Below the pieces are notes generated by a model. The model was not told where the DNA came from. It saw only the letters and a program-made list of their open reading frames with translations, and did no database searches. A stretch of DNA of 64,000 bases from the NCBI GenBank assembly GCA_951406725.2, contig OX597814.1:64604001-64668000 (forward strand), in the 5' to 3' direction. Position numbers and translations under genes: made by a program. The stretch comes from Octopus vulgaris (lineage: Eukaryota). Shown piece after piece: positions 5,025-55,527 of the stretch. Each line of letters begins with the position of its first letter. Within the stretch, counting starts at the first letter, position 1.

Positions 5025-5430
5025 AGCAGAAACGTTAAGCCAGCCGGGCGAAATACTTAGCGGTATTTTATCTGCCGTTACGTTGTGAGTTCAAATTCCG
5101 CCGAGGTCGACTTTGCCTTTCATCCTTTCGGGGTCGATGCATTAAGTACCAGTTACGCACTGAGGTCGATGTAATCGACTTAATCCCTTTGTCTGTCCTT
5201 GTTCGTCCACTCTATGTTTAGCCCCTTGTGGGTGGTAAAGAAATAGGTATTTCGTCTGCCGTTACATTCTGAGTTCAAATTCCGCCTAGGTCGACTTTGC
5301 CTTTCATCCTATCGGGGTCCCTAAATTAAGTACCAGTTGCATACTGGGGTCGATCTAATCGACTGGCCCCCTTCTCAAGAAGGCCCCTTTCCAAAAAGAC
5401 CCCCTTCCCTTGTGCCTAGAATAGAAAAGT
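5025..5430 (+). mobile_element. Two tandem tRNA-derived SINEs, family B (MetaSINE-like core)
   Basis: gagttcaaattccgccgaggtcgactttgcctttcatcctttcggggtcga...aagtaccag occurs twice; B-box GTTCAAAT; the core resembles the MetaSINE domain (from memory). Confidence 0.8.
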
Positions 5431-8092: not shown

Positions 8093-10196
8093 TTCAATTC
8101 AATTTTTATTGGCTCAAAAAGCAAAAGCAAGGCCATGTAGGGGGACAGGGAGGGTGGTCATATAAAGAGTTCAGGCCATTTCTGGTCAAGAGAGACTTTG
8201 AACCGAGCGGTCGTCGGTATCTTCACTATCTCGTCCGGCAGCTTATTCCACGGATCAGCAGCCCGGACGGAGAAAGCCCCTCTCCTTCGATTGAAATGAA
8301 ATCGTCGTAGATAAAGCTTTCCAGAGTGACCCACTAGCCCACGCTCTGGAGCAGGAGTGAAGAACAGCTCTTTCGAGAGGTTACACTTTCCGCTTATGAT
8401 GTTGTGAGCGAGAATAAGATCATCACGGCGTCGTCGTTTTTCGAGAGAACAAAGGTCGAGCGTCTTCAGCCTTTCTTCATAAGACAAATGCTTGAGACCA
8501 AGAACCATGCGGGTAACCAGCTTCTGGACTCTTTCGAGATGATGCATGTCTTTGAGGAGATAAAGAGAAGAGGCTTGAATCCCGTACTCCAATATGGGTC
8601 TCACCAGCGTGACATAGAGCGGAAGGAACATGGCTGCTGTGAGCATTCCGAATGACCGTCGAATCAAAAACAGAACTCTGCGTGCTTTGTTTGCAGCATG
8701 GACGCATTGGGTCGAAGGCGAAAAGGAAGAATCCACCAAGATACCCAGGTCCTTTACTTGGTCGGTCTTCTCCAGCAGCAGATGACCCGGCTCTAAATCA
8801 AGTTGAGTTGCAGGAGAGGAGCCAACAGGCAGATGACAGCACTTCGACACGTTCAGACACAGGTCCCATTCGTTTGACCATCTCCAAACTTGGTGGATGC
8901 ATCGGCGAAGATCATCTATATCATTGCGAGGAGCAACCAGTTTGACATCGTCGACAAATAGAATGGTATGTTGCGTGAGGTCGTCGGGTTAGGGTTAGGG
9001 TTAGGGTTGATGAAGACTAAAAACAATAACAGCCCAAGCACTGAACCTTGAGGCACGCCACTGCTCGCACTGGAGACGTCGGACAGCGAACCATTAACTT
9101 GGACTTGGAAGGAGCAATCTGAGAGGAAGGCACCAACCCATCGTACAATATCCGGATGGAAACGATATGCTTGAAGCTTGACAAGTAATATGCGGTGGTT
9201 AACTGAGTCAAAAGCTTTGGCAAAGTCCAATAAAACGATGTCAACAGCATCACCATCATCCAGGATACGCGTCACCAATTCTTCCATTACCAGTAAGTTG
9301 GTCAAGCATGATCTCTTCGGCACGAAGCCGTGTTGGGAATCAGAGATAGAAGCTGTGTTTTGGAGGTGGAGCAACATACTTTTTTTGAGGATGGTTTCGA
9401 ACATCTTGCTGATTATTGAAGTAAGGGAAACCGGTCGATAGTTAAGCGGGTCTTCGCGCCTCCCTTTCTTGAAAATCGGGCAGATTATCGCTGTTCTCCA
9501 GTCCGCAGGTACAACACCCGTCGCCAATGACATATTGAATAGAAGTGTTAAAGGTTCGCAGATGACCGGAGCCAACGCTTTGATAACCTGTGGGTGTATG
9601 CCGTCAGGGCCGTGACCCTTGTTGACATTGAGGCCTTGAATAACGCGTTCGACTTCGTCACGAGTGATGACCAATCTAGGCATAGGAGGTACCGATCTAT
9701 TAAATGGAGGGGGTTCACGACTATCATCCTGATTGAAAATTGTCGGAAAAGCCTCGGCAAATAACTGACTCTGCTGATAAGGGTCCTCAATCGATACGCC
9801 TGTTGAGTCTACTAACGTTGCAATTTGGTTGTTCAATCGGGAAATCCGTTGGACATGGGCAATGAAAGTTTTTAGATTGCGACTGGCATTTGCCGCGATT
9901 CTGCATTTATATCTGAAGCGTTCTTCCTTTTCAATTTTCACGGCTAGGTCTCGTTGAGTTTTGTACACCTCAAAAGCTGCAGTCGAATCTTGATTTTTGA
10001 ATTCAGCCCAAGCAATATCTGTGAGTCGAAGTTCTCGTTTAACCTTCTTCGTCACCCAGGGCTTGTGTTTTTCCTTCTTGGGAAGCCCAACGGGAACTGC
10101 TTGGTCAGTCAACCAGTTTACATATGCTTTGAGGGACGACCATAGTTCGTCAACTGAGGACATCGTCATCAGAGATCGCCAGTTGTACCACGTCAT
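8093..10196 (-). mobile_element. 5'-truncated CR1-type LINE; ORF2 reverse transcriptase pseudogene
   Basis: ORFs 8916-10196 and 8158-8850: NYRPVSLTS, QHGF, DFAKAFDSVNH, GVPQGSVLG, shifted FVDD, KDLGILVD, CR1-type C-terminus (LERVQK...WNKLP); short 3' UTR ending in aattgaattga. Confidence 0.93.
8986..9008 (+). repeat. Interstitial telomeric repeat (TTAGGG)n inside LINE RT
   Basis: gggttagggttagggttagggtt interrupts the FIN|DL motif. Confidence 0.9.
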
Positions 10197-10344
10197 ATGT
10201 AAATTGTGATTGATTCTCGTCTTATGATTAATTCGTTATACACAAACTGTACGGAATCATATGTGTGCGAGTAAACATGCGCATATCCATGTGTGTGTTG
10301 TGTGTGTGTGTGTGTGTGTATGTTTATGTATATATATATATAAC

Positions 10345-35462: not shown

Positions 35463-35615
35463 GTTCAGTAAAATTTAGATTCAGTTGAATATGGTACTTA
35501 AGTTAAAGGCACCAGAATTTAGTATGGTATTATCCATACTTTCATATTATCAAAATGGGGTGATTATAATCAAAATAAGCAACAAGGATATCCAGATATC
35601 CTCTGGATATCCTTG

Positions 35616-35658
<43 letters not shown>

Positions 35659-35668
<10 letters not shown>

Positions 35669-36168
35669 GAGGGCATTATACATACATGCCAGAAAGCATT
35701 ATATATACATGCCAAACGCTAAGAGGGACAATTAGTCATTTCTACCAAAAATATTACTAATCCCACCGAATGCAATTTTTCAAAGTAAGACATTTAAAAA
35801 AATATAGACCTGTATCACAGTGATTTCATACTTACGTACTCATCAGCAGGCCTGAATGCATTATAAATAAACAACGACCCTGCCCCGCTTAAGTCGATCA
35901 GCTAACTGTTCAACATCAACGAAGCACATGGGTGGGTTTACATATATTACATCCTGTCAAATGGCAAACTTTTACGAATTGCATTTCGGGAGAGGAAAAG
36001 TTTTTTCGGAATAAAAATTTAGCAATTAAGGACAACTACTTAATAAGGAAAACTTAACAAGAAATTGTCAGGTAGATAGCGTAAAAACCTCATAAGAGAA
36101 AAAATTTCGAAAATAATTATTTCTTATTGAACATATTAATTTATATATAGAGGGCATTATACATACAT
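35659..36168 (-). repeat. Inverted arm: one 481-bp unit plus ~29 nt
   Basis: Reverse complement of the array unit with two private substitutions; merges into (TA)n at 35618-35658. Confidence 0.96.
35806..35853 (-). ncRNA. Type I hammerhead ribozyme (inverted arm)
   Basis: Same motif as in the array units, on the opposite strand. Confidence 0.85.
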
Positions 36169-36172
36169 AAAG

Positions 36173-39100
36173 GCCTTCTGGCATGTATGTATAATGCCCT
36201 CTATATATAAATTAATATGTTCAATAAGAAATAATTATTTTCGAAATTTTTTCTCTTATGAGGTTTTTACGCTATCTACCTGACAATTTCTTGTTAAGTT
36301 TTCCTTATTAAGTAGTTGTCCTTAATTGCTAAATTTTTATTCCGAAAAACTTTTCCTCTCCCGAAATGCAATTCGTAAAAGTTTGCCATTTGACAGGATG
36401 TAATATATGTAAACTCACCCATGTGCTTCGTTGATGTTGAACAGTTAGCTGATCGACTTAAGCGGGGCAGGGTCGTTGTTTATTTATAATGCATTCAGGC
36501 CTGCTGATGAGTACGTAAGTATGAAATCACTGTGATACAGGTCTATATTTTTTTAAATGTCTTACTTTGAAAAATTGCATTCGGTGGGATTAGTAATATT
36601 TTTGGTAGAAATGACTAATTGTCCCTCTTAGCGTTTGGCATGTATATATAATGCCTTCTGGCATGTATGTATAATGCCCTCTATATATAAATTAATATGT
36701 TCAATAAGAAATAATTATTTTCGAAATTTTTTCTCTTATGAGGTTTTTACGCTATCTACCTGACAATTTCTTGTTAAGTTTTCCTTATTAAGTAGTTGTC
36801 CTTAATTGCTAAATTTTTATTCCGAAAAAACTTTTCCTCTCCCGAAATGCAATTCGTAAAAGTTTGCCATTTGACAGGATGTAATATATGTAAACTCACC
36901 CATGTGCTTCGTTGATGTTGAACAGTTAGCTGATCGACTTAAGCGGGGCAGGGTCGTTGTTTATTTATAATGCATTCAGGCCTGCTGATGAGTACGTAAG
37001 TATGAAATCACTGTGATACAGGTCTATATTTTTTTAAATGTCTTACTTTGAAAAATTGCATTCGGTGGGATTAGTAATATTTTTGGTAGAAATGACTAAT
37101 TGTCCCTCTTAGCGTTTGGCATGTATATATAATGCCTTCTGGCATGTATGTATAATGCCCTCTATATATAAATTAATATGTTCAATAAGAAATAATTATT
37201 TTCGAAATTTTTTCTCTTAGGTTTTTACGCTATCTACCTGACAATTTCTTGTTAAGTTTTCCTTATTAAGTAGTTGTCCTTAATTGCTAAATTTTTATTC
37301 CGAAAAAACTTTTCCTCTCCCGAAATGCAATTCGTAAAAGTTTGCCATTTGACAGGATGTAATATATGTAAACTCACCCATGTGCTTCGTTGATGTTGAA
37401 CAGTTAGCTGATCGACTTAAGCGGGGCAGGGTCGTTGTTTATTTATAATGCATTCAGGCCTGCTGATGAGTACGTAAGTATGAAATCACTGTGATACAGG
37501 TCTATATTTTTTTAAATGTCTTACTTTGAAAAATTGCATTCGGTGGGATTAGTAATATTTTTGGTAGAAATGACTAATTGTCCCTCTTAGCGTTTGGCAT
37601 GTATATATAATGCCTTCTGGCATGTATGTATAATGCCCTCTATATATAAATTAATATGTTCAATAAGAAATAATTATTTTCGAAATTTTTTCTCTTATGA
37701 GGTTTTTACGCTATCTACCTGACAATTTCTTGTTAAGTTTTCCTTATTAAGTAGTTGTCCTTAATTGCTAAATTTTTATTCCGAAAAAACTTTTCCTCTC
37801 CCGAAATGCAATTCGTAAAAGTTTGCCATTTGACAGGATGTAATATATGTAAACTCACCCATGTGCTTCGTTGATGTTGAACAGTTAGCTGATCGACTTA
37901 AGCGGGGCAGGGTCGTTGTTTATTTATAATGCATTCAGGCCTGCTGATGAGTACGTAAGTATGAAATCACTGTGATACAGGTCTATATTTTTTTAAATGT
38001 CTTACTTTGAAAAATTGCATTCGGTGGGATTAGTAATATTTTTGGTAGAAATGACTAATTGTCCCTCTTAGCGTTTGGCATGTATATATAATGCCTTCTG
38101 GCATGTATGTATAATGCCCTCTATATATAAATTAATATGTTCAATAAGAAATAATTATTTTCGAAATTTTTTCTCTTATGAGGTTTTTACGCTATCTACC
38201 TGACAATTTCTTGTTAAGTTTTCCTTATTAAGTAGTTGTCCTTAATTGCTAAATTTTTATTCCGAAAAAACTTTTCCTCTCCCGAAATGCAATTCGTAAA
38301 AGTTTGCCATTTGACAGGATGTAATATATGTAAACTCACCCATGTGCTTCGTTGATGTTGAACAGTTAGCTGATCGACTTAAGCGGGGCAGGGTCGTTGT
38401 TTATTTATAATGCATTCAGGCCTGCTGATGAGTACGTAAGTATGAAATCACTGTGATACAGGTCTATATTTTTTTAAATGTCTTACTTTGAAAAATTGCA
38501 TTCGGTGGGATTAGTAATATTTTTGGTAGAAATGACTAATTGTCCCTCTTAGCGTTTGGCATGTATATATAATGCCTTCTGGCATGTATGTATAATGCCC
38601 TCTATATATAAATTAATATGTTCAATAAGAAATAATTATTTTCGAAATTTTTTCTCTTATGAGGTTTTTACGCTATCTACCTGACAATTTCTTGTTAAGT
38701 TTTCCTTATTAAGTAGTTGTCCTTAATTGCTAAATTTTTATTCCGAAAAAACTTTTCCTCTCCCGAAATGCAATTCGTAAAAGTTTGCCATTTGACAGGA
38801 TGTAATATATGTAAACTCACCCATGTGCTTCGTTGATGTTGAACAGTTAGCTGATCGACTTAAGCGGGGCAGGGTCGTTGTTTATTTATAATGCATTCAG
38901 GCCTGCTGATGAGTACGTAAGTATGAAATCACTGTGATACAGGTCTATATTTTTTTTAAATGTCTTACTTTGAAAAATTGCATTCGGTGGGATTAGTAAT
39001 ATTTTTGGTAGAAATGACTAATTGTCCCTCTTAGCGTTTGGCATGTATATATAATGCCTTCTGGCATGTATGTATAATGCCCTCTATATATAAATTAATA

Positions 39101-42100
39101 TGTTCAATAAGAAATAATTATTTTCGAAATTTTTTCTCTTATGAGGTTTTTACGCTATCTACCTGACAATTTCTTGTTAAGTTTTCCTTATTAAGTAGTT
39201 GTCCTTAATTGCTAAATTTTTATTCCGAAAAAACTTTTCCTCTCCCGAAATGCAATTCGTAAAAGTTTGCCATTTGACAGGATGTAATATATGTAAACTC
39301 ACCCATGTGCTTCGTTGATGTTGAACAGTTAGCTGATCGACTTAAGCGGGGCAGGGTCGTTGTTTATTTATAATGCATTCAGGCCTGCTGATGAGTACGT
39401 AAGTATGAAATCACTGTGATACAGGTCTATATCTTTTTAAATGTCTTACTTTGAAAAATTGCATTCGGTGGGATTAGTAATATTTTTGGTAGAAATGACT
39501 AATTGTCCCTCTTAGCGTTTGGCATGTATATATAATGCCTTCTGGCATGTATGTATAATGCCCTCTATATATAAATTAATATGTTCAATAAGAAATAATT
39601 ATTTTCGAAATTTTTTCTCTTATGAGGTTTTTACGCTATCTACCTGACAATTTCTTGTTAAGTTTCCTTATTAAGTAGTTGTCCTTAATTGCTAAATTTT
39701 TATTCCGAAAAAACTTTTCCTCTCCCGAAATGCAATTCGTAAAAGTTTGCCATTTGACAGGATGTAATATATGTAAACTCACCCATGTGCTTCGTTGATG
39801 TTGAACAGTTAGCTGATCGACTTAAGCGGGGCAGGGTCGTTGTTTATTTATAATGCATTCAGGCCTGCTGATGAGTACGTAAGTATGAAATCACTGTGAT
39901 ACAGGTCTATATTTTTTTAAATGTCTTACTTTGAAAAATTGCATTCGGTGGGATTAGTAATATTTTTGGTAGAAATGACTAATTGTCCCTCTTAGCGTTT
40001 GGCATGTATATATAATGCCTTCTGGCATGTATGTATAATGCCCTCTATATATAAATTAATATGTTCAATAAGAAATAATTATTTTCGAAATTTTTTCTCT
40101 TAGGTTTTTACGCTATCTACCTGACAATTTCTTGTTAAGTTTTCCTTATTAAGTAGTTGTCCTTAATTGCTAAATTTTTATTCCGAAAAAACTTTTCCTC
40201 TCCCGAAATGCAATTCGTAAAAGTTTGCCATTTGACAGGATGTAATATATGTAAACTCACCCATGTGCTTCGTTGATGTTGAACAGTTAGCTGATCGACT
40301 TAAGCGGGGCAGGGTCGTTGTTTATTTATAATGCATTCAGGCCTGCTGATGAGTACGTAAGTATGAAATCACTGTGATACAGGTCTATATTTTTTTAAAT
40401 GTCTTACTTTGAAAAATTGCATTCGGTGGGATTAGTAATATTTTTGGTAGAAATGACTAATTGTCCCTCTTAGCGTTTGGCATGTATATATAATGCCTTC
40501 TGGCATGTATGTATAATGCCCTCTATATATAAATTAATATGTTCAATAAGAAATAATTATTTTCGAAATTTTTTCTCTTATGAGGTTTTTACGCTATCTA
40601 CCTGACAATTTCTTGTTAAGTTTTCCTTATTAAGTAGTTGTCCTTAATTGCTAAATTTTTATTCCGAAAAAACTTTTCCTCTCCCGAAATGCAATTCGTA
40701 AAAGTTTGCCATTTGACAGGATGTAATATATGTAAACTCACCCATGTGCTTCGTTGATGTTGAACAGTTAGCTGATCGACTTAAGCGGGGCAGGGTCGTT
40801 GTTTATTTATAATGCATTCAGGCCTGCTGATGAGTACGTAAGTATGAAATCACTGTGATACAGGTCTATATTTTTTTAAATGTCTTACTTTGAAAAATTG
40901 CATTCGGTGGGATTAGTAATATTTTTGGTAGAAATGACTAATTGTCCCTCTTAGCGTTTGGCATGTATATATAATGCCTTCTGGCATGTATGTATAATGC
41001 CCTCTATATATAAATTAATATGTTCAATAAGAAATAATTATTTTCGAAATTTTTTTCTCTTATGAGGTTTTTACGCTATCTACCTGACAATTTCTTGTTA
41101 AGTTTTCCTTATTAAGTAGTTGTCCTTAATTGCTAAATTTTTATTCCGAAAAAACTTTTCCTCTCCCGAAATGCAATTCGTAAAAGTTTGCCATTTGACA
41201 GGATGTAATATATGTAAACTCACCCATGTGCTTCGTTGATGTTGAACAGTTAGCTGATCGACTTAAGCGGGGCAGGGTCGTTGTTTATTTATAATGCATT
41301 CAGGCCTGCTGATGAGTACGTAAGTATGAAATCACTGTGATACAGGTCTATATTTTTTTTTAAATGTCTTACTTTGAAAAATTGCATTCGGTGGGATTAG
41401 TAATATTTTTGGTAGAAATGACTAATTGTCCCTCTTAGCGTTTGGCATGTATATATAATGCCTTCTGGCATGTATGTATAATGCCCTCTATATATAAATT
41501 AATATGTTCAATAAGAAATAATTATTTTCGAAATTTTTTCTCTTATGAGGTTTTTACGCTATCTACCTGACAATTTCTTGTTAAGTTTTCCTTATTAAGT
41601 AGTTGTCCTTAATTGCTAAATTTTTATTCCGAAAAAACTTTTCCTCTCCCGAAATGCAATTCGTAAAAGTTTGCCATTTGACAGGATGTAATATATGTAA
41701 ACTCACCCATGTGCTTCGTTGATGTTGAACAGTTAGCTGATCGACTTAAGCGGGGCAGGGTCGTTGTTTATTTATAATGCATTCAGGCCTGCTGATGAGT
41801 ACGTAAGTATGAAATCACTGTGATACAGGTCTATATCTTTTTAAATGTCTTACTTTGAAAAATTGCATTCGGTGGGATTAGTAATATTTTTGGTAGAAAT
41901 GACTAATTGTCCCTCTTAGCGTTTGGCATGTATATATAATGCCTTCTGGCATGTATGTATAATGCCCTCTATATATAAATTAATATGTTCAATAAGAAAT
42001 AATTATTTTCGAAATTTTTTCTCTTATGAGGTTTTTACGCTATCTACCTGACAATTTCTTGTTAAGTTTTCCTTATTAAGTAGTTGTCCTTAATTGCTAA

Positions 42101-45100
42101 ATTTTTATTCCGAAAAAACTTTTCCTCTCCCGAAATGCAATTCGTAAAAGTTTGCCATTTGACAGGATGTAATATATGTAAACTCACCCATGTGCTTCGT
42201 TGATGTTGAACAGTTAGCTGATCGACTTAAGCGGGGCAGGGTCGTTGTTTATTTATAATGCATTCAGGCCTGCTGATGAGTACGTAAGTATGAAATCACT
42301 GTGATACAGGTCTATATCTTTTTAAATGTCTTACTTTGAAAAATTGCATTCGGTGGGATTAGTAATATTTTTGGTAGAAATGACTAATTGTACCTCTTAG
42401 CGTTTGGCATGTATATATAATGCCTTCTGGCATGTATGTATAATGCCCTCTATATATAAATTAATATGTTCAATAAGAAATAATTATTTTCGAAATTTTT
42501 TCTCTTATGAGGTTTTTACGCTATCTACCTGACAATTTCTTGTTAAGTTTTCCTTATTAAGTAGTTGTCCTTAATTGCTAAATTTTTATTCCGAAAAAAC
42601 TTTTCCTCTCCCGAAATGCAATTCGTAAAAGTTTGCCATTTGACAGGATGTAATATATGTAAACTCACCCATGTGCTTCGTTGATGTTGAACAGTTAGCT
42701 GATCGACTTAAGCGGGGCAGGGTCGTTGTTTATTTATAATGCATTCAGGCCTGCTGATGAGTACGTAAGTATGAAATCACTGTGATACAGGTCTATATTT
42801 TTTTAAATGTCTTACTTTGAAAAATTGCATTCGGTGGGATTAGTAATATTTTTGGTAGAAATGACTAATTGTCCCTCTTAGCGTTTGGCATGTATATATA
42901 ATGCCTTCTGGCATGTATGTATAATGCCCTCTATATATAAATTAATATGTTCAATAAGAAATAATTATTTTCGAAATTTTTTCTCTTATGAGGTTTTTAC
43001 GCTATCTACCTGACAATTTCTTGTTAAGTTTTCCTTATTAAGTAGTTGTCCTTAATTGCTAAATTTTTATTCCGAAAAAACTTTTCCTCTCCCGAAATGC
43101 AATTCGTAAAAGTTTGCCATTTGACAGGATGTAATATATGTAAACTCACCCATGTGCTTCGTTGATGTTGAACAGTTAGCTGATCGACTTAAGCGGGGCA
43201 GGGTCGTTGTTTATTTATAATGCATTCAGGCCTGCTGATGAGTACGTAAGTATGAAATCACTGTGATACAGGTCTATATCTTTTTAAATGTCTTACTTTG
43301 AAAAATTGCATTCGGTGGGATTAGTAATATTTTTGGTAGAAATGACTAATTGTACCTCTTAGCGTTTGGCATGTATATATAATGCCTTCTGGCATGTATG
43401 TATAATGCCCTCTATATATAAATTAATATGTTCAATAAGAAATAATTATTTTCGAAATTTTTTCTCTTATGAGGTTTTTACGCTATCTACCTGACAATTT
43501 CTTGTTAAGTTTTCCTTATTAAGTAGTTGTCCTTAATTGCTAAATTTTTATTCCGAAAAAACTTTTCCTCTCCCGAAATGCAATTCGTAAAAGTTTGCCA
43601 TTTGACAGGATGTAATATATGTAAACTCACCCATGTGCTTCGTTGATGTTGAACAGTTAGCTGATCGACTTAAGCGGGGCAGGGTCGTTGTTTATTTATA
43701 ATGCATTCAGGCCTGCTGATGAGTACGTAAGTATGAAATCACTGTGATACAGGTCTATATTTTTTTTTAAATGTCTTACTTTGAAAAATTGCATTCGGTG
43801 GGATTAGTAATATTTTTGGTAGAAATGACTAATTGTCCCTCTTAGCGTTTGGCATGTATATATAATGCCTTCTGGCATGTATGTATAATGCCCTCTATAT
43901 ATAAATTAATATGTTCAATAAGAAATAATTATTTTCGAAATTTTTTCTCTTATGAGGTTTTTACGCTATCTACCTGACAATTTCTTGTTAAGTTTTCCTT
44001 ATTAAGTAGTTGTCCTTAATTGCTAAATTTTTATTCCGAAAAAACTTTTCCTCTCCCGAAATGCAATTCGTAAAAGTTTGCCATTTGACAGGATGTAATA
44101 TATGTAAACTCACCCATGTGCTTCGTTGATGTTGAACAGTTAGCTGATCGACTTAAGCGGGGCAGGGTCGTTGTTTATTTATAATGCATTCAGGCCTGCT
44201 GATGAGTACGTAAGTATGAAATCACTGTGATACAGGTCTATATTTTTTTTAAATGTCTTACTTTGAAAAATTGCATTCGGTGGGATTAGTAATATTTTTG
44301 GTAGAAATGACTAATTGTCCCTCTTAGCGTTTGGCATGTATATATAATGCCTTCTGGCATGTATGTATAATGCCCTCTATATATAAATTAATATGTTCAA
44401 TAAGAAATAATTATTTTCGAAATTTTTTCTCTTATGAGGTTTTTACGCTATCTACCTGACAATTTCTTGTTAAGTTTTCCTTATTAAGTAGTTGTCCTTA
44501 ATTGCTAAATTTTTATTCCGAAAAAACTTTTCCTCTCCCGAAATGCAATTCGTAAAAGTTTGCCATTTGACAGGATGTAATATATGTAAACTCACCCATG
44601 TGCTTCGTTGATGTTGAACAGTTAGCTGATCGACTTAAGCGGGGCAGGGTCGTTGTTTATTTATAATGCATTCAGGCCTGCTGATGAGTACGTAAGTATG
44701 AAATCACTGTGATACAGGTCTATATTTTTTTAAATGTCTTACTTTGAAAAATTGCATTCGGTGGGATTAGTAATATTTTTGGTAGAAATGACTAATTGTC
44801 CCTCTTAGCGTTTGGCATGTATATATAATGCCTTCTGGCATGTATGTATAATGCCCTCTATATATAAATTAATATGTTCAATAAGAAATAATTATTTTCG
44901 AAATTTTTTCTCTTATGAGGTTTTTACGCTATCTACCTGACAATTTCTTGTTAAGTTTTCCTTATTAAGTAGTTGTCCTTAATTGCTAAATTTTTATTCC
45001 GAAAAAACTTTTCCTCTCCCGAAATGCAATTCGTAAAAGTTTGCCATTTGACAGGATGTAATATATGTAAACTCACCCATGTGCTTCGTTGATGTTGAAC

Positions 45101-48100
45101 AGTTAGCTGATCGACTTAAGCGGGGCAGGGTCGTTGTTTATTTATAATGCATTCAGGCCTGCTGATGAGTACGTAAGTATGAAATCACTGTGATACAGGT
45201 CTATATTTTTTTAAATGTCTTACTTTGAAAAATTGCATTCGGTGGGATTAGTAATATTTTTGGTAGAAATGACTAATTGTCCCTCTTAGCGTTTGGCATG
45301 TATATATAATGCCTTCTGGCATGTATGTATAATGCCCTCTATATATAAATTAATATGTTCAATAAGAAATAATTATTTTCGAAATTTTTTCTCTTATGAG
45401 GTTTTTACGCTATCTACCTGACAATTTCTTGTTAAGTTTTCCTTATTAAGTAGTTGTCCTTAATTGCTAAATTTTTATTCCGAAAAAACTTTTCCTCTCC
45501 CGAAATGCAATTCGTAAAAGTTTGCCATTTGACAGGATGTAATATATGTAAACTCACCCATGTGCTTCGTTGATGTTGAACAGTTAGCTGATCGACTTAA
45601 GCGGGGCAGGGTCGTTGTTTATTTATAATGCATTCAGGCCTGCTGATGAGTACGTAAGTATGAAATCACTGTGATACAGGTCTATATTTTTTTAAATGTC
45701 TTACTTTGAAAAATTGCATTCGGTGGGATTAGTAATATTTTTGGTAGAAATGACTAATTGTCCCTCTTAGCGTTTGGCATGTATATATAATGCCTTCTGG
45801 CATGTATGTATAATGCCCTCTATATATAAATTAATATGTTCAATAAGAAATAATTATTTTCGAAATTTTTTCTCTTATGAGGTTTTTACGCTATCTACCT
45901 GACAATTTCTTGTTAAGTTTTCCTTATTAAGTAGTTGTCCTTAATTGCTAAATTTTTATTCCGAAAAAACTTTTCCTCTCCCGAAATGCAATTCGTAAAA
46001 GTTTGCCATTTGACAGGATGTAATATATGTAAACTCACCCATGTGCTTCGTTGATGTTGAACAGTTAGCTGATCGACTTAAGCGGGGCAGGGTCGTTGTT
46101 TATTTATAATGCATTCAGGCCTGCTGATGAGTACGTAAGTATGAAATCACTGTGATACAGGTCTATATTTTTTTAAATGTCTTACTTTGAAAAATTGCAT
46201 TCGGTGGGATTAGTAATATTTTTGGTAGAAATGACTAATTGTCCCTCTTAGCGTTTGGCATGTATATATAATGCCTTCTGGCATGTATGTATAATGCCCT
46301 CTATATATAAATTAATATGTTCAATAAGAAATAATTATTTTCGAAATTTTTTCTCTTATGAGGTTTTTACGCTATCTACCTGACAATTTCTTGTTAAGTT
46401 TTCCTTATTAAGTAGTTGTCCTTAATTGCTAAATTTTTATTCCGAAAAAACTTTTCCTCTCCCGAAATGCAATTCGTAAAAGTTTGCCATTTGACAGGAT
46501 GTAATATATGTAAACTCACCCATGTGCTTCGTTGATGTTGAACAGTTAGCTGATCGACTTAAGCGGGGCAGGGTCGTTGTTTATTTATAATGCATTCAGG
46601 CCTGCTGATGAGTACGTAAGTATGAAATCACTGTGATACAGGTCTATATTTTTTTAAATGTCTTACTTTGAAAAATTGCATTCGGTGGGATTAGTAATAT
46701 TTTTGGTAGAAATGACTAATTGTCCCTCTTAGCGTTTGGCATGTATATATAATGCCTTCTGGCATGTATGTATAATGCCCTCTATATATAAATTAATATG
46801 TTCAATAAGAAATAATTATTTTCGAAATTTTTTCTCTTATGAGGTTTTTACGCTATCTACCTGACAATTTCTTGTTAAGTTTTCCTTATTAAGTAGTTGT
46901 CCTTAATTGCTAAATTTTTATTCCGAAAAAACTTTTCCTCTCCCGAAATGCAATTCGTAAAAGTTTGCCATTTGACAGGATGTAATATATGTAAACTCAC
47001 CCATGTGCTTCGTTGATGTTGAACAGTTAGCTGATCGACTTAAGCGGGGCAGGGTCGTTGTTTATTTATAATGCATTCAGGCCTGCTGATGAGTACGTAA
47101 GTATGAAATCACTGTGATACAGGTCTATATTTTTTTAAATGTCTTACTTTGAAAAATTGCATTCGGTGGGATTAGTAATATTTTTGGTAGAAATGACTAA
47201 TTGTCCCTCTTAGCGTTTGGCATGTATATATAATGCCTTCTGGCATGTATGTATAATGCCCTCTATATATAAATTAATATGTTCAATAAGAAATAATTAT
47301 TTTCGAAATTTTTTCTCTTATGAGGTTTTTACGCTATCTACCTGACAATTTCTTGTTAAGTTTTCCTTATTAAGTAGTTGTCCTTAATTGCTAAATTTTT
47401 ATTCCGAAAAAACTTTTCCTCTCCCGAAATGCAATTCGTAAAAGTTTGCCATTTGACAGGATGTAATATATGTAAACTCACCCATGTGCTTCGTTGATGT
47501 TGAACAGTTAGCTGATCGACTTAAGCGGGGCAGGGTCGTTGTTTATTTATAATGCATTCAGGCCTACTGATGAGTACGTAAGTATGAAATCACTGTGATA
47601 CAGGTCTATATTTTTTTAAATGTCTTACTTTGAAAAATTGCATTCGGTGGGATTAGTAATATTTTTGGTAGAAATGACTAATTGTCCCTCTTAGCGTTTG
47701 GCATGTATATATAATGCCTTCTGGCATGTATGTATAATGCCCTCTATATATAAATTAATATGTTCAATAAGAAATAATTATTTTCGAAATTTTTTCTCTT
47801 ATGAGGTTTTTACGCTATCTACCTGACAATTTCTTGTTAAGTTTTCCTTATTAAGTAGTTGTCCTTAATTGCTAAATTTTTATTCCGAAAAAACTTTTCC
47901 TCTCCCGAAATGCAATTCGTAAAAGTTTGCCATTTGACAGGATGTAATATATGTAAACTCACCCATGTGCTTCGTTGATGTTGAACAGTTAGCTGATCGA
48001 CTTAAGCGGGGCAGGGTCGTTGTTTATTTATAATGCATTCAGGCCTGCTGATGAGTACGTAAGTATGAAATCACTGTGATACAGGTCTATATTTTTTTAA

Positions 48101-51100
48101 ATGTCTTACTTTGAAAAATTGCATTCGGTGGGATTAGTAATATTTTTGGTAGAAATGACTAATTGTCCCTCTTAGCGTTTGGCATGTATATATAATGCCT
48201 TCTGGCATGTATGTATAATGCCCTCTATATATAAATTAATATGTTCAATAAGAAATAATTATTTTCGAAATTTTTTCTCTTATGAGGTTTTTACGCTATC
48301 TACCTGACAATTTCTTGTTAAGTTTTCCTTATTAAGTAGTTGTCCTTAATTGCTAAATTTTTATTCCGAAAAAACTTTTCCTCTCCCGAAATGCAATTCG
48401 TAAAAGTTTGCCATTTGACAGGATGTAATATATGTAAACTCACCCATGTGCTTCGTTGATGTTGAACAGTTAGCTGATCGACTTAAGCGGGGCAGGGTCG
48501 TTGTTTATTTATAATGCATTCAGGCCTGCTGATGAGTACGTAAGTATGAAATCACTGTGATACAGGTCTATATTTTTTTAAATGTCTTACTTTGAAAAAT
48601 TGCATTCGGTGGGATTAGTAATATTTTTGGTAGAAATGACTAATTGTCCCTCTTAGCGTTTGGCATGTATATATAATGCCTTCTGGCATGTATGTATAAT
48701 GCCCTCTATATATAAATTAATATGTTCAATAAGAAATAATTATTTTCGAAATTTTTTCTCTTATGAGGTTTTTACGCTATCTACCTGACAATTTCTTGTT
48801 AAGTTTTCCTTATTAAGTAGTTGTCCTTAATTGCTAAATTTTTATTCCGAAAAAACTTTTCCTCTCCCGAAATGCAATTCGTAAAAGTTTGCCATTTGAC
48901 AGGATGTAATATATGTAAACTCACCCATGTGCTTCGTTGATGTTGAACAGTTAGCTGATCGACTTAAGCGGGGCAGGGTCGTTGTTTATTTATAATGCAT
49001 TCAGGCCTGCTGATGAGTACGTAAGTATGAAATCACTGTGATACAGGTCTATATTTTTTTAAATGTCTTACTTTGAAAAATTGCATTCGGTGGGATTAGT
49101 AATATTTTTGGTAGAAATGACTAATTGTCCCTCTTAGCGTTTGGCATGTATATATAATGCCTTCTGGCATGTATGTATAATGCCCTCTATATATAAATTA
49201 ATATGTTCAATAAGAAATAATTATTTTCGAAATTTTTTCTCTTATGAGGTTTTTACGCTATCTACCTGACAATTTCTTGTTAAGTTTTCCTTATTAAGTA
49301 GTTGTCCTTAATTGCTAAATTTTTATTCCGAAAAAACTTTTCCTCTCCCGAAATGCAATTCGTAAAAGTTTGCCATTTGACAGGATGTAATATATGTAAA
49401 CTCACCCATGTGCTTCGTTGATGTTGAACAGTTAGCTGATCGACTTAAGCGGGGCAGGGTCGTTGTTTATTTATAATGCATTCAGGCCTGCTGATGAGTA
49501 CGTAAGTATGAAATCACTGTGATACAGGTCTATATCTTTTTAAATGTCTTACTTTGAAAAATTGCATTCGGTGGGATTAGTAATATTTTTGGTAGAAATG
49601 ACTAATTGTCCCTCTTAGCGTTTGGCATGTATATATAATGCCTTCTGGCATGTATGTATAATGCCCTCTATATATAAATTAATATGTTCAATAAGAAATA
49701 ATTATTTTCGAAATTTTTTCTCTTATGAGGTTTTTACGCTATCTACCTGACAATTTCTTGTTAAGTTTTCCTTATTAAGTAGTTGTCCTTAATTGCTAAA
49801 TTTTTATTCCGAAAAAACTTTTCCTCTCCCGAAATGCAATTCGTAAAAGTTTGCCATTTGACAGGATGTAATATATGTAAACTCACCCATGTGCTTCGTT
49901 GATGTTGAACAGTTAGCTGATCGACTTAAGCGGGGCAGGGTCGTTGTTTATTTATAATGCATTCAGGCCTGCTGATGAGTACGTAAGTATGAAATCACTG
50001 TGATACAGGTCTATATCTTTTTAAATGTCTTACTTTGAAAAATTGCATTCGGTGGGATTAGTAATATTTTTGGTAGAAATGACTAATTGTACCTCTTAGC
50101 GTTTGGCATGTATATATAATGCCTTCTGGCATGTATGTATAATGCCCTCTATATATAAATTAATATGTTCAATAAGAAATAATTATTTTCGAAATTTTTT
50201 CTCTTATGAGGTTTTTACGCTATCTACCTGACAATTTCTTGTTAAGTTTTCCTTATTAAGTAGTTGTCCTTAATTGCTAAATTTTTATTCCGAAAAAACT
50301 TTTCCTCTCCCGAAATGCAATTCGTAAAAGTTTGCCATTTGACAGGATGTAATATATGTAAACTCACCCATGTGCTTCGTTGATGTTGAACAGTTAGCTG
50401 ATCGACTTAAGCGGGGCAGGGTCGTTGTTTATTTATAATGCATTCAGGCCTGCTGATGAGTACGTAAGTATGAAATCACTGTGATACAGGTCTATATTTT
50501 TTTTTAAATGTCTTACTTTGAAAAATTGCATTCGGTGGGATTAGTAATATTTTTGGTAGAAATGACTAATTGTCCCTCTTAGCGTTTGGCATGTATATAT
50601 AATGCCTTCTGGCATGTATGTATAATGCCCTCTATATATAAATTAATATGTTCAATAAGAAATAATTATTTTCGAAATTTTTTCTCTTATGAGGTTTTTA
50701 CGCTATCTACCTGACAATTTCTTGTTAAGTTTTCCTTATTAAGTAGTTGTCCTTAATTGCTAAATTTTTATTCCGAAAAAACTTTTCCTCTCCCGAAATG
50801 CAATTCGTAAAAGTTTGCCATTTGACAGGATGTAATATATGTAAACTCACCCATGTGCTTCGTTGATGTTGAACAGTTAGCTGATCGACTTAAGCGGGGC
50901 AGGGTCGTTGTTTATTTATAATGCATTCAGGCCTGCTGATGAGTACGTAAGTATGAAATCACTGTGATACAGGTCTATATCTTTTTAAATGTCTTACTTT
51001 GAAAAATTGCATTCGGTGGGATTAGTAATATTTTTGGTAGAAATGACTAATTGTCCCTCTTAGCGTTTGGCATGTATATATAATGCCTTCTGGCATGTAT

Positions 51101-51240
51101 GTATAATGCCCTCTATATATAAATTAATATGTTCAATAAGAAATAATTATTTTCGAAATTTTTTCTCTTATGAGGTTTTTACGCTATCTACCTGACAATT
51201 TCTTGTTAAGTTTTCCTTATTAAGTAGTTGTCCTTAATTG

Positions 51241-51243
<3 letters not shown>
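36173..51243 (+). repeat. Tandem array: 31 full ~481-bp hammerhead-containing units plus ~159-bp partial unit
   Basis: Unit starts (gccttctggcatg) at 36173, 36653, 37134 ... 51085; near-identical units, no ORF; ends in (TA)n at 51242-51296. Confidence 0.98.
36497..36544 (+). ncRNA. Type I hammerhead ribozyme (first of 31, one per unit)
   Basis: Stem I aggcctg/caggtct; CTGATGA 36504-36510; stem II gtac-GTAA-gtat; GAAA 36523-36526; palindromic stem III atcac-t-gtgat; predicted cleavage after A36537 (AUA). Confidence 0.88.
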
Positions 51244-51300
<57 letters not shown>

Positions 51301-51304
<4 letters not shown>

Positions 51305-51621
51305 GAAAGGATCACAAAAGTACAGCAGAGCTTAAGGAGCACCCTGAGAACCCAGTTTCAACAAAAACTGTTCGCCGGCTGCTGCACAAAGCCGGATTTC
51401 ACGGGAAAGCTACTATTAGAAAACCACTATATTCAGAAACAAACGTTGCAAAGCGTTTAGAGTGAAGTAAAAACCTACAGAAATGGTCCCAAGAGCTGTG
51501 GCAGTATGTCATTTTCTCGGACGAGTCATCTTTTACCTTATTTCCGGCCACCAGCCAAGTATACGTGTGGAGGCAGCCAAAAGAAGCATTTGACCCAGAA
51601 TGCCTTCTTCCAACTGTTAAA
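51301..51621 (+). mobile_element. Tc1-type transposase fragment
   Basis: VSTKTVRRLLHKAGF..RKPL....RLE*..WQYVIFSDESSF..VWRQPKE..PTVK: second HTH region plus first catalytic Asp; one stop codon. Confidence 0.9.
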
Positions 51622-51845: not shown

Positions 51846-51849
<4 letters not shown>

Positions 51850-52050
51850 ATCCAAACAAGAAAGCACAAAAAAACACAACAACCCGAGGACGTGGAACAA
51901 ATATAGTATTATTGGACGCTCAGGAAAGAAGGAAAGAAGGAGGGTTTAACGTTTCGAGCGGTGCTCTTCGTCGGAAACATAGGAGAAGGAAAGATCCAGA
52001 GAAGGGAAGACAGAGGAAAAAAATCGCCAACGGTACACACGCGGTCACAT
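51846..52050 (-). mobile_element. Penelope-like pLTR relic with minimal hammerhead (51944-51978)
   Basis: Minus strand gttt-CCGACGA-A-gagc-acc-gctc-GAAA-CG-T-T-aaac; abuts (TA)n; homologous to 6038-6237. Confidence 0.7.
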
Positions 52051-52069
52051 TACATACATGTATATGCTT

Positions 52070-54640: not shown

Positions 54641-55179
54641 GAGGCACTGAGCCTCTTACACACTTAAACATTAAACACTGAGGCTTTTCAACCTCTTGTT
54701 AGTTTTCCTCCTCAACATCGCTTGTGCCCGTATACTCCACCATTACCCACGCCTCGTTTAAAACTAAAGCGGGGACCACAAGTAATCCGCAAATAATCTA
54801 CTGGTAATCCTCCAGAATATCGCTTCACGCAGGTACTCCAGTTCACCGTAGCAGCAAAAACAATTCCTTCCCGAATAGGTCGAATTTTTAAAACTTTTCA
54901 AATTTTGGTAGCGAGACACGCCCACCAAAACAAAACAGTTCTCATTGCTAAGTGAGTTACTCAGTGCGACTGCAGTAGGCAAATGTTCGAGACCCATTGG
55001 GGATTTCTTATATGAAAAAAGGAAAAACAATGTCATACAACAAATTCCCCATTAAATTCTCCTTAAAAAAAAATAAGTGCCTACCTCGCAGTCGCGCCTT
55101 CAACGGTTCTTTAATTCAAGACGGTTTCCAAGCACGTCTTGACAACGTTCACTCACGTAAGTGACTGACAAACTCACGT

Positions 55180-55527
55180 ATGGAAAGTGGTTCCCACATA
55201 AAATTCAAGAGCGGATCCCTTTTCAAAATAAATGCAGATATGAACTACAAAACGCAAAACCTCATATACTGCATTACCTGCCCAAACCGCAAAGAAAATT
55301 ACATCGGCGAAGCAAATACTTCCCTCTGCCAACGAGCAAGAATCCACAGGCAACATATCCGAGAAGAAGAATTACGCAAGATTCCATTAAGTAAGCATCT
55401 GGAAATATGCGACAACGGAAAATTCAAAATTTTTCCTTTTTACAAATCTGCACGGGACGATCCGCAATACTGAAAAGCAATGGAACTACATTTCATCAAA
55501 AAATTCTCTCCAAAGTTGAATCTCTGA
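55180..55527 (+). pseudogene. Penelope-like GIY-YIG endonuclease C-terminal remnant
   Basis: NLIYCITCPNRKENYIGE...L.QR..IH..HI....PLSKH..C...*KAMELHFIKKFSPKLNL*: LIY..YIG with conserved R, H, E, N; one premature stop. Confidence 0.88.

Follow-up and report, generated by a model that had tools for sequence, protein, structure and literature searches.

A dispersed 481-bp hammerhead repeat of Octopus vulgaris, a candidate retrozyme probably twin-primed by Penelope-type machinery and perhaps copied from circular RNA

Non-LTR (long terminal repeat) retrozymes are described as tandem units of low GC content without an open reading frame (ORF), each with a type I hammerhead ribozyme and a highly self-paired monomer; they co-occur with autonomous Penelope-like elements and range from dimers to long arrays. 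Retrozyme RNA circles are known, and the templating of new genomic copies by them, as well as the enzyme involved, has been put forward as a proposal (PMC7229834, PMC4209133, bioRxiv 10.64898/2026.07.22.740005); tandem cDNA made by a Penelope reverse transcriptase (RT) on circular RNA is likewise presented as a proposal only in the available text of PMC7229834 and PMC4209133. Penelope-like elements that carry an endonuclease (EN+), such as Neptune and Naiad, leave 5'-truncated tandem copies and an inverted 5'-truncated copy, often with a tail at one end, a hammerhead in the repeat, two internal RT start sites, and a preference for (TA)n that masks target-site duplications (PMC8557442, PMC3846280, PMC11167929). 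The one-sided tail measures 30-40 nt (PMC8557442, PMC3846280) and equals the distance between the two internal RT starts (PMC11167929), while the making of inverted copies and one-sided tails is called undefined in PMC8557442, as far as its available text goes. Here we describe a 481-bp hammerhead-bearing unit in 64,000 nucleotides of Octopus vulgaris contig OX597814.1 (positions 64,604,001 to 64,668,000 of the forward strand, hereafter the window). Judged by its sequence it is a non-LTR retrozyme, and we read it, with some hesitation, as a non-autonomous Penelope-type retroelement that is twin-primed, probably on a circular monomer.

In the window the element forms a single large insertion between two (TA)n tracts, which Tandem Repeats Finder (TRF) places at 35617-35668 and 51242-51297. 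The direct arm (36173-51243, plus strand) has a period of 481, 31.3 copies and 99% matches by TRF; cut at an anchor, it yields 31 full units of 478-484 bp with 10 distinct sequences, 14 units being identical. The longest stop-to-stop frames of a unit are 43 amino acids (aa) on the plus and 54 aa on the minus strand, leaving it without an ORF, and its GC content is ~0.33. Positions below refer to a reference unit (36653-37133, plus strand), in which position 1 is 36653, the predicted ribozyme cut follows position 366, and two sites that we call A and B lie at ~40 and ~160. The original prediction had described 31 near-identical, ORF-less units of ~481 bp set in (TA)n, each with a type I hammerhead of stems I, II and III and a UA cut site after 36537, and in these respects it was accurate. 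The mechanistic information sits in an inverted arm and in two fixed end sites, on which it was silent. The inverted arm (35658-36168, minus strand) comprises 1.06 units, has its outer 3' end at site A, and is joined head-to-head to the array by a 4-nt insert (36169-36172) that connects the 5' ends of the two arms; the outer 3' end of the direct arm is at site B, here unit position ~159. The left flank, the presumed cut target, is best counted as 35617-35657, the last bases of the TRF array belonging to the element, and the right flank as 51244-51297. Both arm ends and the junction are those of ordinary members of a dispersed family.

That family was evident when the 2.8-Gb genome (227 contigs) was searched by BLASTN with one unit, a search that the prediction had suggested: 219 matches fell at 39 scored places on many contigs, out of 975 candidate places. 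The 32-nt hammerhead core had 327 exact matches genome-wide and its reversed control none; among the 100 matches listed (contig C1 to the start of C5), 69 lie at 35 loci other than the window, from which we extrapolate to roughly 150 young loci. The family sample used throughout consists of 60 loci, namely the window, the 39 BLAST loci and 20 of 22 new hammerhead-match loci. An 18-nt stem III variant had 368 genome matches, and among the 22 distinct places listed, 19 belong to a sister family (family 2) and three to a close subfamily. Family 2 also has a period of 481 and is ~72% identical to the family of the window (family 1). Just upstream of site A lies a small hairpin, predicted in both families (35672-35690 of the inverted arm, minus strand; consensus columns 33-43 with 69-76), and family 1 carries a 23-bp duplication of it at unit positions 466-30 (for example 36636-36682 in the window), with three family 1 loci having ends inside the extra copy. 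Family 2 lacks the duplication, yet the period of 481 is kept in both, which suggests that unit length is under constraint. Older copies stand beside one young insertion (L031:128-1096); their identity to either family is 71-81%, which probably makes them a third and more ancient subfamily, and the same TA-rich site was probably used again. Contigs of run X19, which bears a second organism label (D), fill all 29 unit bins, five of six being at least 90% alike; the family is therefore not confined to one species label.

Insertions of family 1 have a regular anatomy. Both orientations are present at 46 of the 60 loci, the arms meeting at their 5' ends and pointing outward with their 3' ends, and whereas the 5' ends are scattered, the outer 3' ends fall at sites A and B. 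Among these 46 loci, 42 combine one A with one B end (39 by script, three by hand), four carry one other end, and neither A+A nor B+B occurs; the chance of 42/42 A+B is 0.5^42 = 2e-13. In the sister family A+B holds at 6/6 loci with both ends scored, the other 13 of the 19 examined having one end scored. Beyond 93 of 99 A or B ends lies (TA)6 or longer. Like site A, site B directly follows a hairpin that both families are predicted to form (51194-51232 in the window, plus strand; consensus columns 169-185 with 191-207), which shows one two-sided and two one-sided changes between them; a helix closing A to B in the minimum free energy (MFE) fold of family 1 was rejected, being absent from the two-family consensus. 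A and B arms are alike in length (p 0.33). With nine complex loci left out, 37 junctions could be scored, 10 with inserts and 27 insert-free, and 14 of the latter overlap by at least 3 nt, against 6.7% by chance (p 3e-10). RT or EN fragments are close to only five of 89 locus stretches, in every case outside the arms.

The same anatomy characterizes intact Penelope-like elements of this genome. Protein and GIY-YIG searches recovered at least four young families with intact RT/GIY-YIG frames, of 775, 784, 781 and ~1000-1200 aa (found among loci L181-L193, L090-L099, L208-L211 and L198-L207). In the 784-aa family a probe of 103-105 aa is matched identically by 149 of 150 scored copies. The 775-, 784- and 781-aa proteins have a CX2-5CxxC linker, a feature assigned to Neptune and Nematis (PMC8557442); upstream of the RT frame these Neptune-type families carry a long ORF that overlaps it, and hammerhead-like motifs, their cores non-canonical, occur in two of the families. 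Insertions of the 784-aa family lie head-to-head in (TA)n and pair a short end with a long one, the two differing by 34 nt, at 7/7 loci with both ends scored (six by script and L182 by eye, from 12 loci fetched, most of them picked as two-armed), and the 775-aa family shows a short and a long end at 1/1 locus, also in (TA)n, so that the pairing holds in 8/8 scored two-armed insertions of intact elements (L182-L192, L098). Because the 481-bp element follows the same end rule and the same head-to-head anatomy in (TA)n, it bears the footprint of Penelope machinery, and we have little doubt that it is mobilized by it. Short-plus-long pairing may be a general Penelope rule.

Candidate partners were also considered and set aside. 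The 781-aa family gave the best score among terminal-region shuffles, 6/200, which is unconvincing for AT-rich DNA after six tests. A further candidate, a ~220-bp solo element in the window (51846-52060, minus strand), lies between (TA)n tracts, ends at fixed positions and contains a minimal hammerhead in degenerate form; it has 475 candidates in the genome and 93-98% identity in 39 other scored copies, and was rejected as a partner end since it is solo and without RT/EN sequence in 25 loci. It looks like another non-autonomous, monomeric Penelope derivative. Near-perfect palindromes, short and long, also occur beside (TA)n, in the window at ~35581-35618 and in the flanks of L151, and are possibly tiny head-to-head insertions of other Penelope-type elements.

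A single A and a single B start per insertion likely reflect twin priming at two fixed sites on one template. The arms of an insertion resemble each other more than chance pairing allows: with six chimeric alignment pieces left out, the difference across 29 loci comes to 27 in 10131 bp (0.27%), compared with 0.88 +/- 0.06% in shuffled pairings (0/10000). Such shared haplotypes would also arise if one arm were cDNA and the other a fold-back, self-primed copy of it or an antisense-templated one, as suggested for rotifer Penelope elements, where palindromes at inverted junctions were read as self-priming (PMC3846280). Self-priming would further account for the junction microhomology and fits L022, L042 and L052, in which the A arm is the longer. 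At seven A+B loci, L048-L050 among them, the arms are such that neither could lie within the other; a simple fold-back copy is thereby excluded there, and in L048-L050 rare variants are nonetheless common to both arms. Copying of one arm from the other would also leave unexplained why an insertion has a single A and a single B end regardless of which arm is the longer. We regard this origin as highly improbable. We infer instead that both arms are cDNA primed from the two target ends, for which twin priming on one RNA is the simplest account. In the twin priming of LINE-1, a long interspersed nuclear element, two target 3' ends prime on one RNA and a microhomology join yields an inversion; there the internal site taken by the second primer varies and the two parts have no overlap, whereas here the sites are fixed and the arms repeat whole units.

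In the window array the hammerhead core lies on the plus strand at 31 sites, from 36504 to 50936, and on the minus strand once, at 35839. The first plus-strand hammerhead spans 36497-36544, with the predicted cut after 36537, and recurs every ~481 bp to 50936; that of the inverted arm spans 35806-35853 by alignment (minus strand, core at 35839). The motif comprises a stem I of 7 bp, CUGAUGA, a stem II of 4 bp with a GUAA loop, GAAA, and a palindromic stem III of 4 bp; a full hammerhead descriptor is satisfied by 0 of 3000 dinucleotide shuffles of the unit. The claim of a complete hammerhead in each unit stands for the core, found in 31/31 units with the 32 nt exact in 30 (in unit 24 the stem I pair adjoining the core carries a G>A change), and needs amending for the first pair of stem II, which is G-U rather than canonical. 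Across the alignment the core CUGANGA, GAAA, UH and the three-stem junction are kept, 97% of cells being paired; two pairs of stem I changed on both sides between families 1 and 2, modest evidence of selection on the fold, and stem III, being invariant between copies, is uninformative on covariation. The MFE of the circular monomer is -128 kcal/mol, at z -6.5 relative to 40 shuffles, and imposing the hammerhead fold on it raises this by 3 kcal/mol. Among 42 linear permutations, which range from -127 to -135 kcal/mol, the cut-to-cut form ranks second and does not stand out. Palindromic stem III has been linked to cleavage in dimers (PMC4209133), and natural hammerheads with U10.1-U11.1 exist, U-U being the best-tolerated mismatch at that place (PMC3088659).

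We hypothesize the following sequence of events. Tandem copies would be transcribed, and the hammerhead would cut the RNA into 481-nt monomers that close into circles. A Penelope-type RT/GIY-YIG protein, probably Neptune-like, would nick both strands of (TA)n, a target that is observed directly; each 3' end would prime cDNA on the same RNA, at A or B, just 3' of the hairpin, and each cDNA would then go up to about seven laps past the cut site before a random stop. The two cDNA 3' ends are joined by short microhomology, producing the head-to-head arms that we observe, and in the window the B arm would later have grown to 31 copies through local duplication. In vitro, an anole Penelope-like element has both target strands nicked and extended, two internal start sites and a predicted dimer (PMC11167929). 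It is, to our minds, an even chance that the octopus insertions preserve in an animal genome the trace of rolling-circle reverse transcription, with a circular RNA made by the ribozyme as template. On that reading a Penelope RT complex with two active sites would sit on one 481-nt circle, start once at each hairpin from the two ends of a cut (TA)n tract, and lap until the cDNAs meet.

The lengths of the arms bear on these steps. The predicted cut site is crossed by 86 of 100 arms, and twice or more by 44; 5' ends coincide with it in 2/100 arms against 2.3 expected (2/74 after correction). Arms run through the cut site and their 5' ends are not piled up there, so the cut linear monomer is rejected as the template; 11 apparent 5' starts at unit position 1 proved to be an alignment artefact. 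Among the 100 young arms, 27 are longer than two units, with a smooth decay of lengths and evenly spread 5' ends. These features speak against an insertion of about one unit per arm, with tandem copies added later by unequal crossover or slippage and the arms homogenized by gene conversion, as do the rare variants common to arms of which neither contains the other. Duplication would moreover need a unit-length repeat to start from, and hence copying across the unit junction. Later growth of that kind fits the 31-mer of the window and L047, would also yield uniform laps, and has its counterpart in the local amplification suggested for vertebrate retrozymes (bioRxiv 10.64898/2026.07.22.740005); as an explanation of the family we find it improbable.

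Laps are indeed uniform. The 20 arms with at least two full units represent 13 haplotypes, in which 51 substitutions are fixed in all units and one is partly shared (five loci, including the window, are left out of the lap test). Such uniformity follows directly from a monomer circle, and on balance the template would seem to be usually a circular monomer. Fixed A-to-I edits are not a feature of the family, since 64 inherited variants show no A>G excess (6 A>G, 14 T>C; four loci left out of the spectrum). Contigs from four runs of unrecorded type were also available, and one of 510 nt spans the whole unit; a 481-nt back-joint is present in contigs of all four runs and fits a circle and a tandem array equally. 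One low-depth contig (run X3, contig 13) aligns to 45663-45782 of the window with 14 differences that include an A>G cluster on the hammerhead strand, as hyper-editing of an inverted-arm duplex would give, or a diverged DNA copy.

A series of observations weighs against one part or another of this account. On the ribozyme, the G10.1-C11.1 pair that closes stem II is replaced by G-U in family 1, A-U in a subfamily and U-U in family 2; the local MFE fold differs from the hammerhead fold (z -0.24); and a search with Rfam models, as the prediction had proposed, gave no match in the window at gathering thresholds, the level at which it was run, rather than at an E-value threshold. With Rfam empty and the local MFE not that of the ribozyme, identification rests on motif and covariation, and the covariation is modest because it consists of two pairs and essentially one split between families. 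The whole-circle fold of family 1 finds no support in family 2 (21 of 50 changed pairs kept, null 20.7), and 8 of 9 Xenopus retrozyme dimers failed to cleave in vitro (bioRxiv 10.64898/2026.07.22.740005). On the machinery, BLASTN of the unit against the four intact Penelope-like families found no significant similarity and no homology to their pseudo-LTR (pLTR); six comparisons of terminal regions in three families gave 6 to 136 of 200 shuffles scoring as high; the A-B distance of ~120 nt is three times the tails of the intact families (34-38 nt); and start sites were alike on both strands in the anole system (PMC11167929). On the template, the sample leans to long, similar copies, 39 of its 60 loci being best BLAST hits. 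Six of the 11 both-arm variants called private (in 40 loci) recur in a second locus sample and are thus haplotype markers. Six of 34 A+B loci misfit one uniform monomer: the arms differ in L035, L047 and L051, and in L022, L042 and L052 they share lap-specific variants in one register, a pattern expected from a multi-unit template or from hairpin gene conversion. In the anole element, finally, cleavage is unneeded for insertion, and uncut RNA was the dominant substrate in vitro (PMC11167929).

Several of these points favour a template of a different kind, in which twin priming is the same and an array already in the genome is transcribed into a multi-unit RNA that serves uncut, or partly cut; the hammerhead would then be dispensable for copying, and long arms would come from long source arrays built by DNA-level expansion. 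The shared register in L022, L042 and L052, the preference for uncut RNA in the anole system, and the non-canonical 10.1-11.1 pair all agree with it; multimeric RNAs are known in axolotl (PMC7229834), and DNA-level expansion does occur, as in the window array. To yield long uniform laps, with 51 fixed substitutions to a single partly shared one, at least 13 haplotypes would each need a long and uniform source array, and such sources are not apparent: among the first 100 hammerhead matches listed (C1 to the start of C5), only the window array exceeds five copies, and this one long array has no daughter at 59 other loci. The preservation of stem I through compensatory change also sits uneasily with a dispensable ribozyme. 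We therefore treat the uncut multimer as possible yet rather doubtful, and the circular monomer remains our preferred template.

The 31 copies of the window are best understood apart from the family mechanism. Arms other than the window array average 769 nt, with a maximum of 3551 (n=100), and 15070 nt would lie in an exponential tail of 3e-9. Variant units recur in blocks along the array, both substitutions and a 3-nt deletion showing block patterns, and the window haplotype is common to both window arms; as it is found at 0/59 other loci, the window array was rejected as a master locus. The 31-mer is very likely a local, post-insertion expansion of the B arm. An over-expanded assembly, the real insertion having few units, would touch this length only and not the family; the array is an extreme length outlier, and several recurrent unit variants fall in one homopolymer run. 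Set against this are the block-wise recurrence of substitutions and of the 3-nt deletion, the absence of any N in the window, and the normal ends and junction, and we judge an assembly artefact unlikely. The original prediction had a retrozyme-like element copied in trans by a Penelope RT, which gains from the dispersal, the (TA)n target and the short- and long-end anatomy, and had taken the 15-kb length as its notable feature, which does not survive comparison with arms elsewhere, with the repeated variant blocks, or with published retrozyme arrays of up to 300 units (bioRxiv 10.64898/2026.07.22.740005). What the window offers instead is a satellite caught being born from one arm of a retrotransposition.

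Elsewhere in the window, a decayed GIY-YIG fragment lies at 55165-55470 on the plus strand (Pfam E 2e-4). By their motifs we take 8158-10235 (minus strand) to be a frameshifted LINE-like RT and 51298-51620 to be a fragment of a Tc1-like transposase, and a 184-bp repeat at 5062-5404 is presumably an octopus short interspersed nuclear element (SINE).

Relative to the systems introduced above, the element thus shares with non-LTR retrozymes its unit structure and its autonomous company. It differs in its length, 481 nt being above the 170-400 nt given for invertebrates and inside the 51-972 bp of a 2026 survey; in the G-U or U-U at 10.1-11.1; in lacking pLTR homology, where 24 of 57 Xenopus families have matches to transposable elements; and in its two-armed, head-to-head A+B insertions, which we did not meet in the literature available to us (the main text of PMC7229834 never uses the word 'inverted'). 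From an autonomous Penelope-like element it is set apart by the absence of an RT plus GIY-YIG ORF. It departs from described EN+ Penelope-like elements in having no ORF, in its tail of ~120 rather than 30-40 nt, in units short enough to read up to seven laps, and in strict short/long pairing (42/42), the tail being optional or often one-sided in the available text of those papers. Chlamys elements such as MRC1 are likewise non-autonomous, Penelope-type and inserted as multicopy head-to-tail runs (PMC8557442); as described there, they match autonomous partners at the 3' end and mostly lack a canonical hammerhead, whereas the octopus unit carries a hammerhead and no partner for it emerged among the four intact families. 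The ribozyme satellites of newt (satellite 2), schistosome and Dolichopoda are also tandem hammerhead repeats (PMC7229834), and palindromic stem III suits dimer cleavage in them as here (PMC4209133). Unlike them, the octopus family consists mostly of short dispersed insertions, with the window locus alone satellite-like. Stem III is typically 1-2 bp in those satellites, against 4 bp in the octopus unit. We found no octopus or cephalopod retrozyme and no strict two-end rule in the literature, a search that had Repbase, Dfam and key supplements outside it. New here are the ~120-nt tail, the strict A+B rule, the common haplotypes and the countable laps.

No host function is indicated for the family, and its interest lies in the process that it records. 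Since the family is young and its unit short, each insertion shows its start sites, its number of laps and the haplotype of its template. The insertion footprint ties a retrozyme to Penelope machinery and makes the proposal of circular RNA templates testable, and the experimental material is compact: a defined RNA of 481 nt with sites A and B, a TA tract as target and, encoded by this very genome, several intact enzymes as candidates. If true, the strict short/long rule would be the general mechanism behind the tail and the inverted pLTR of Penelope elements.

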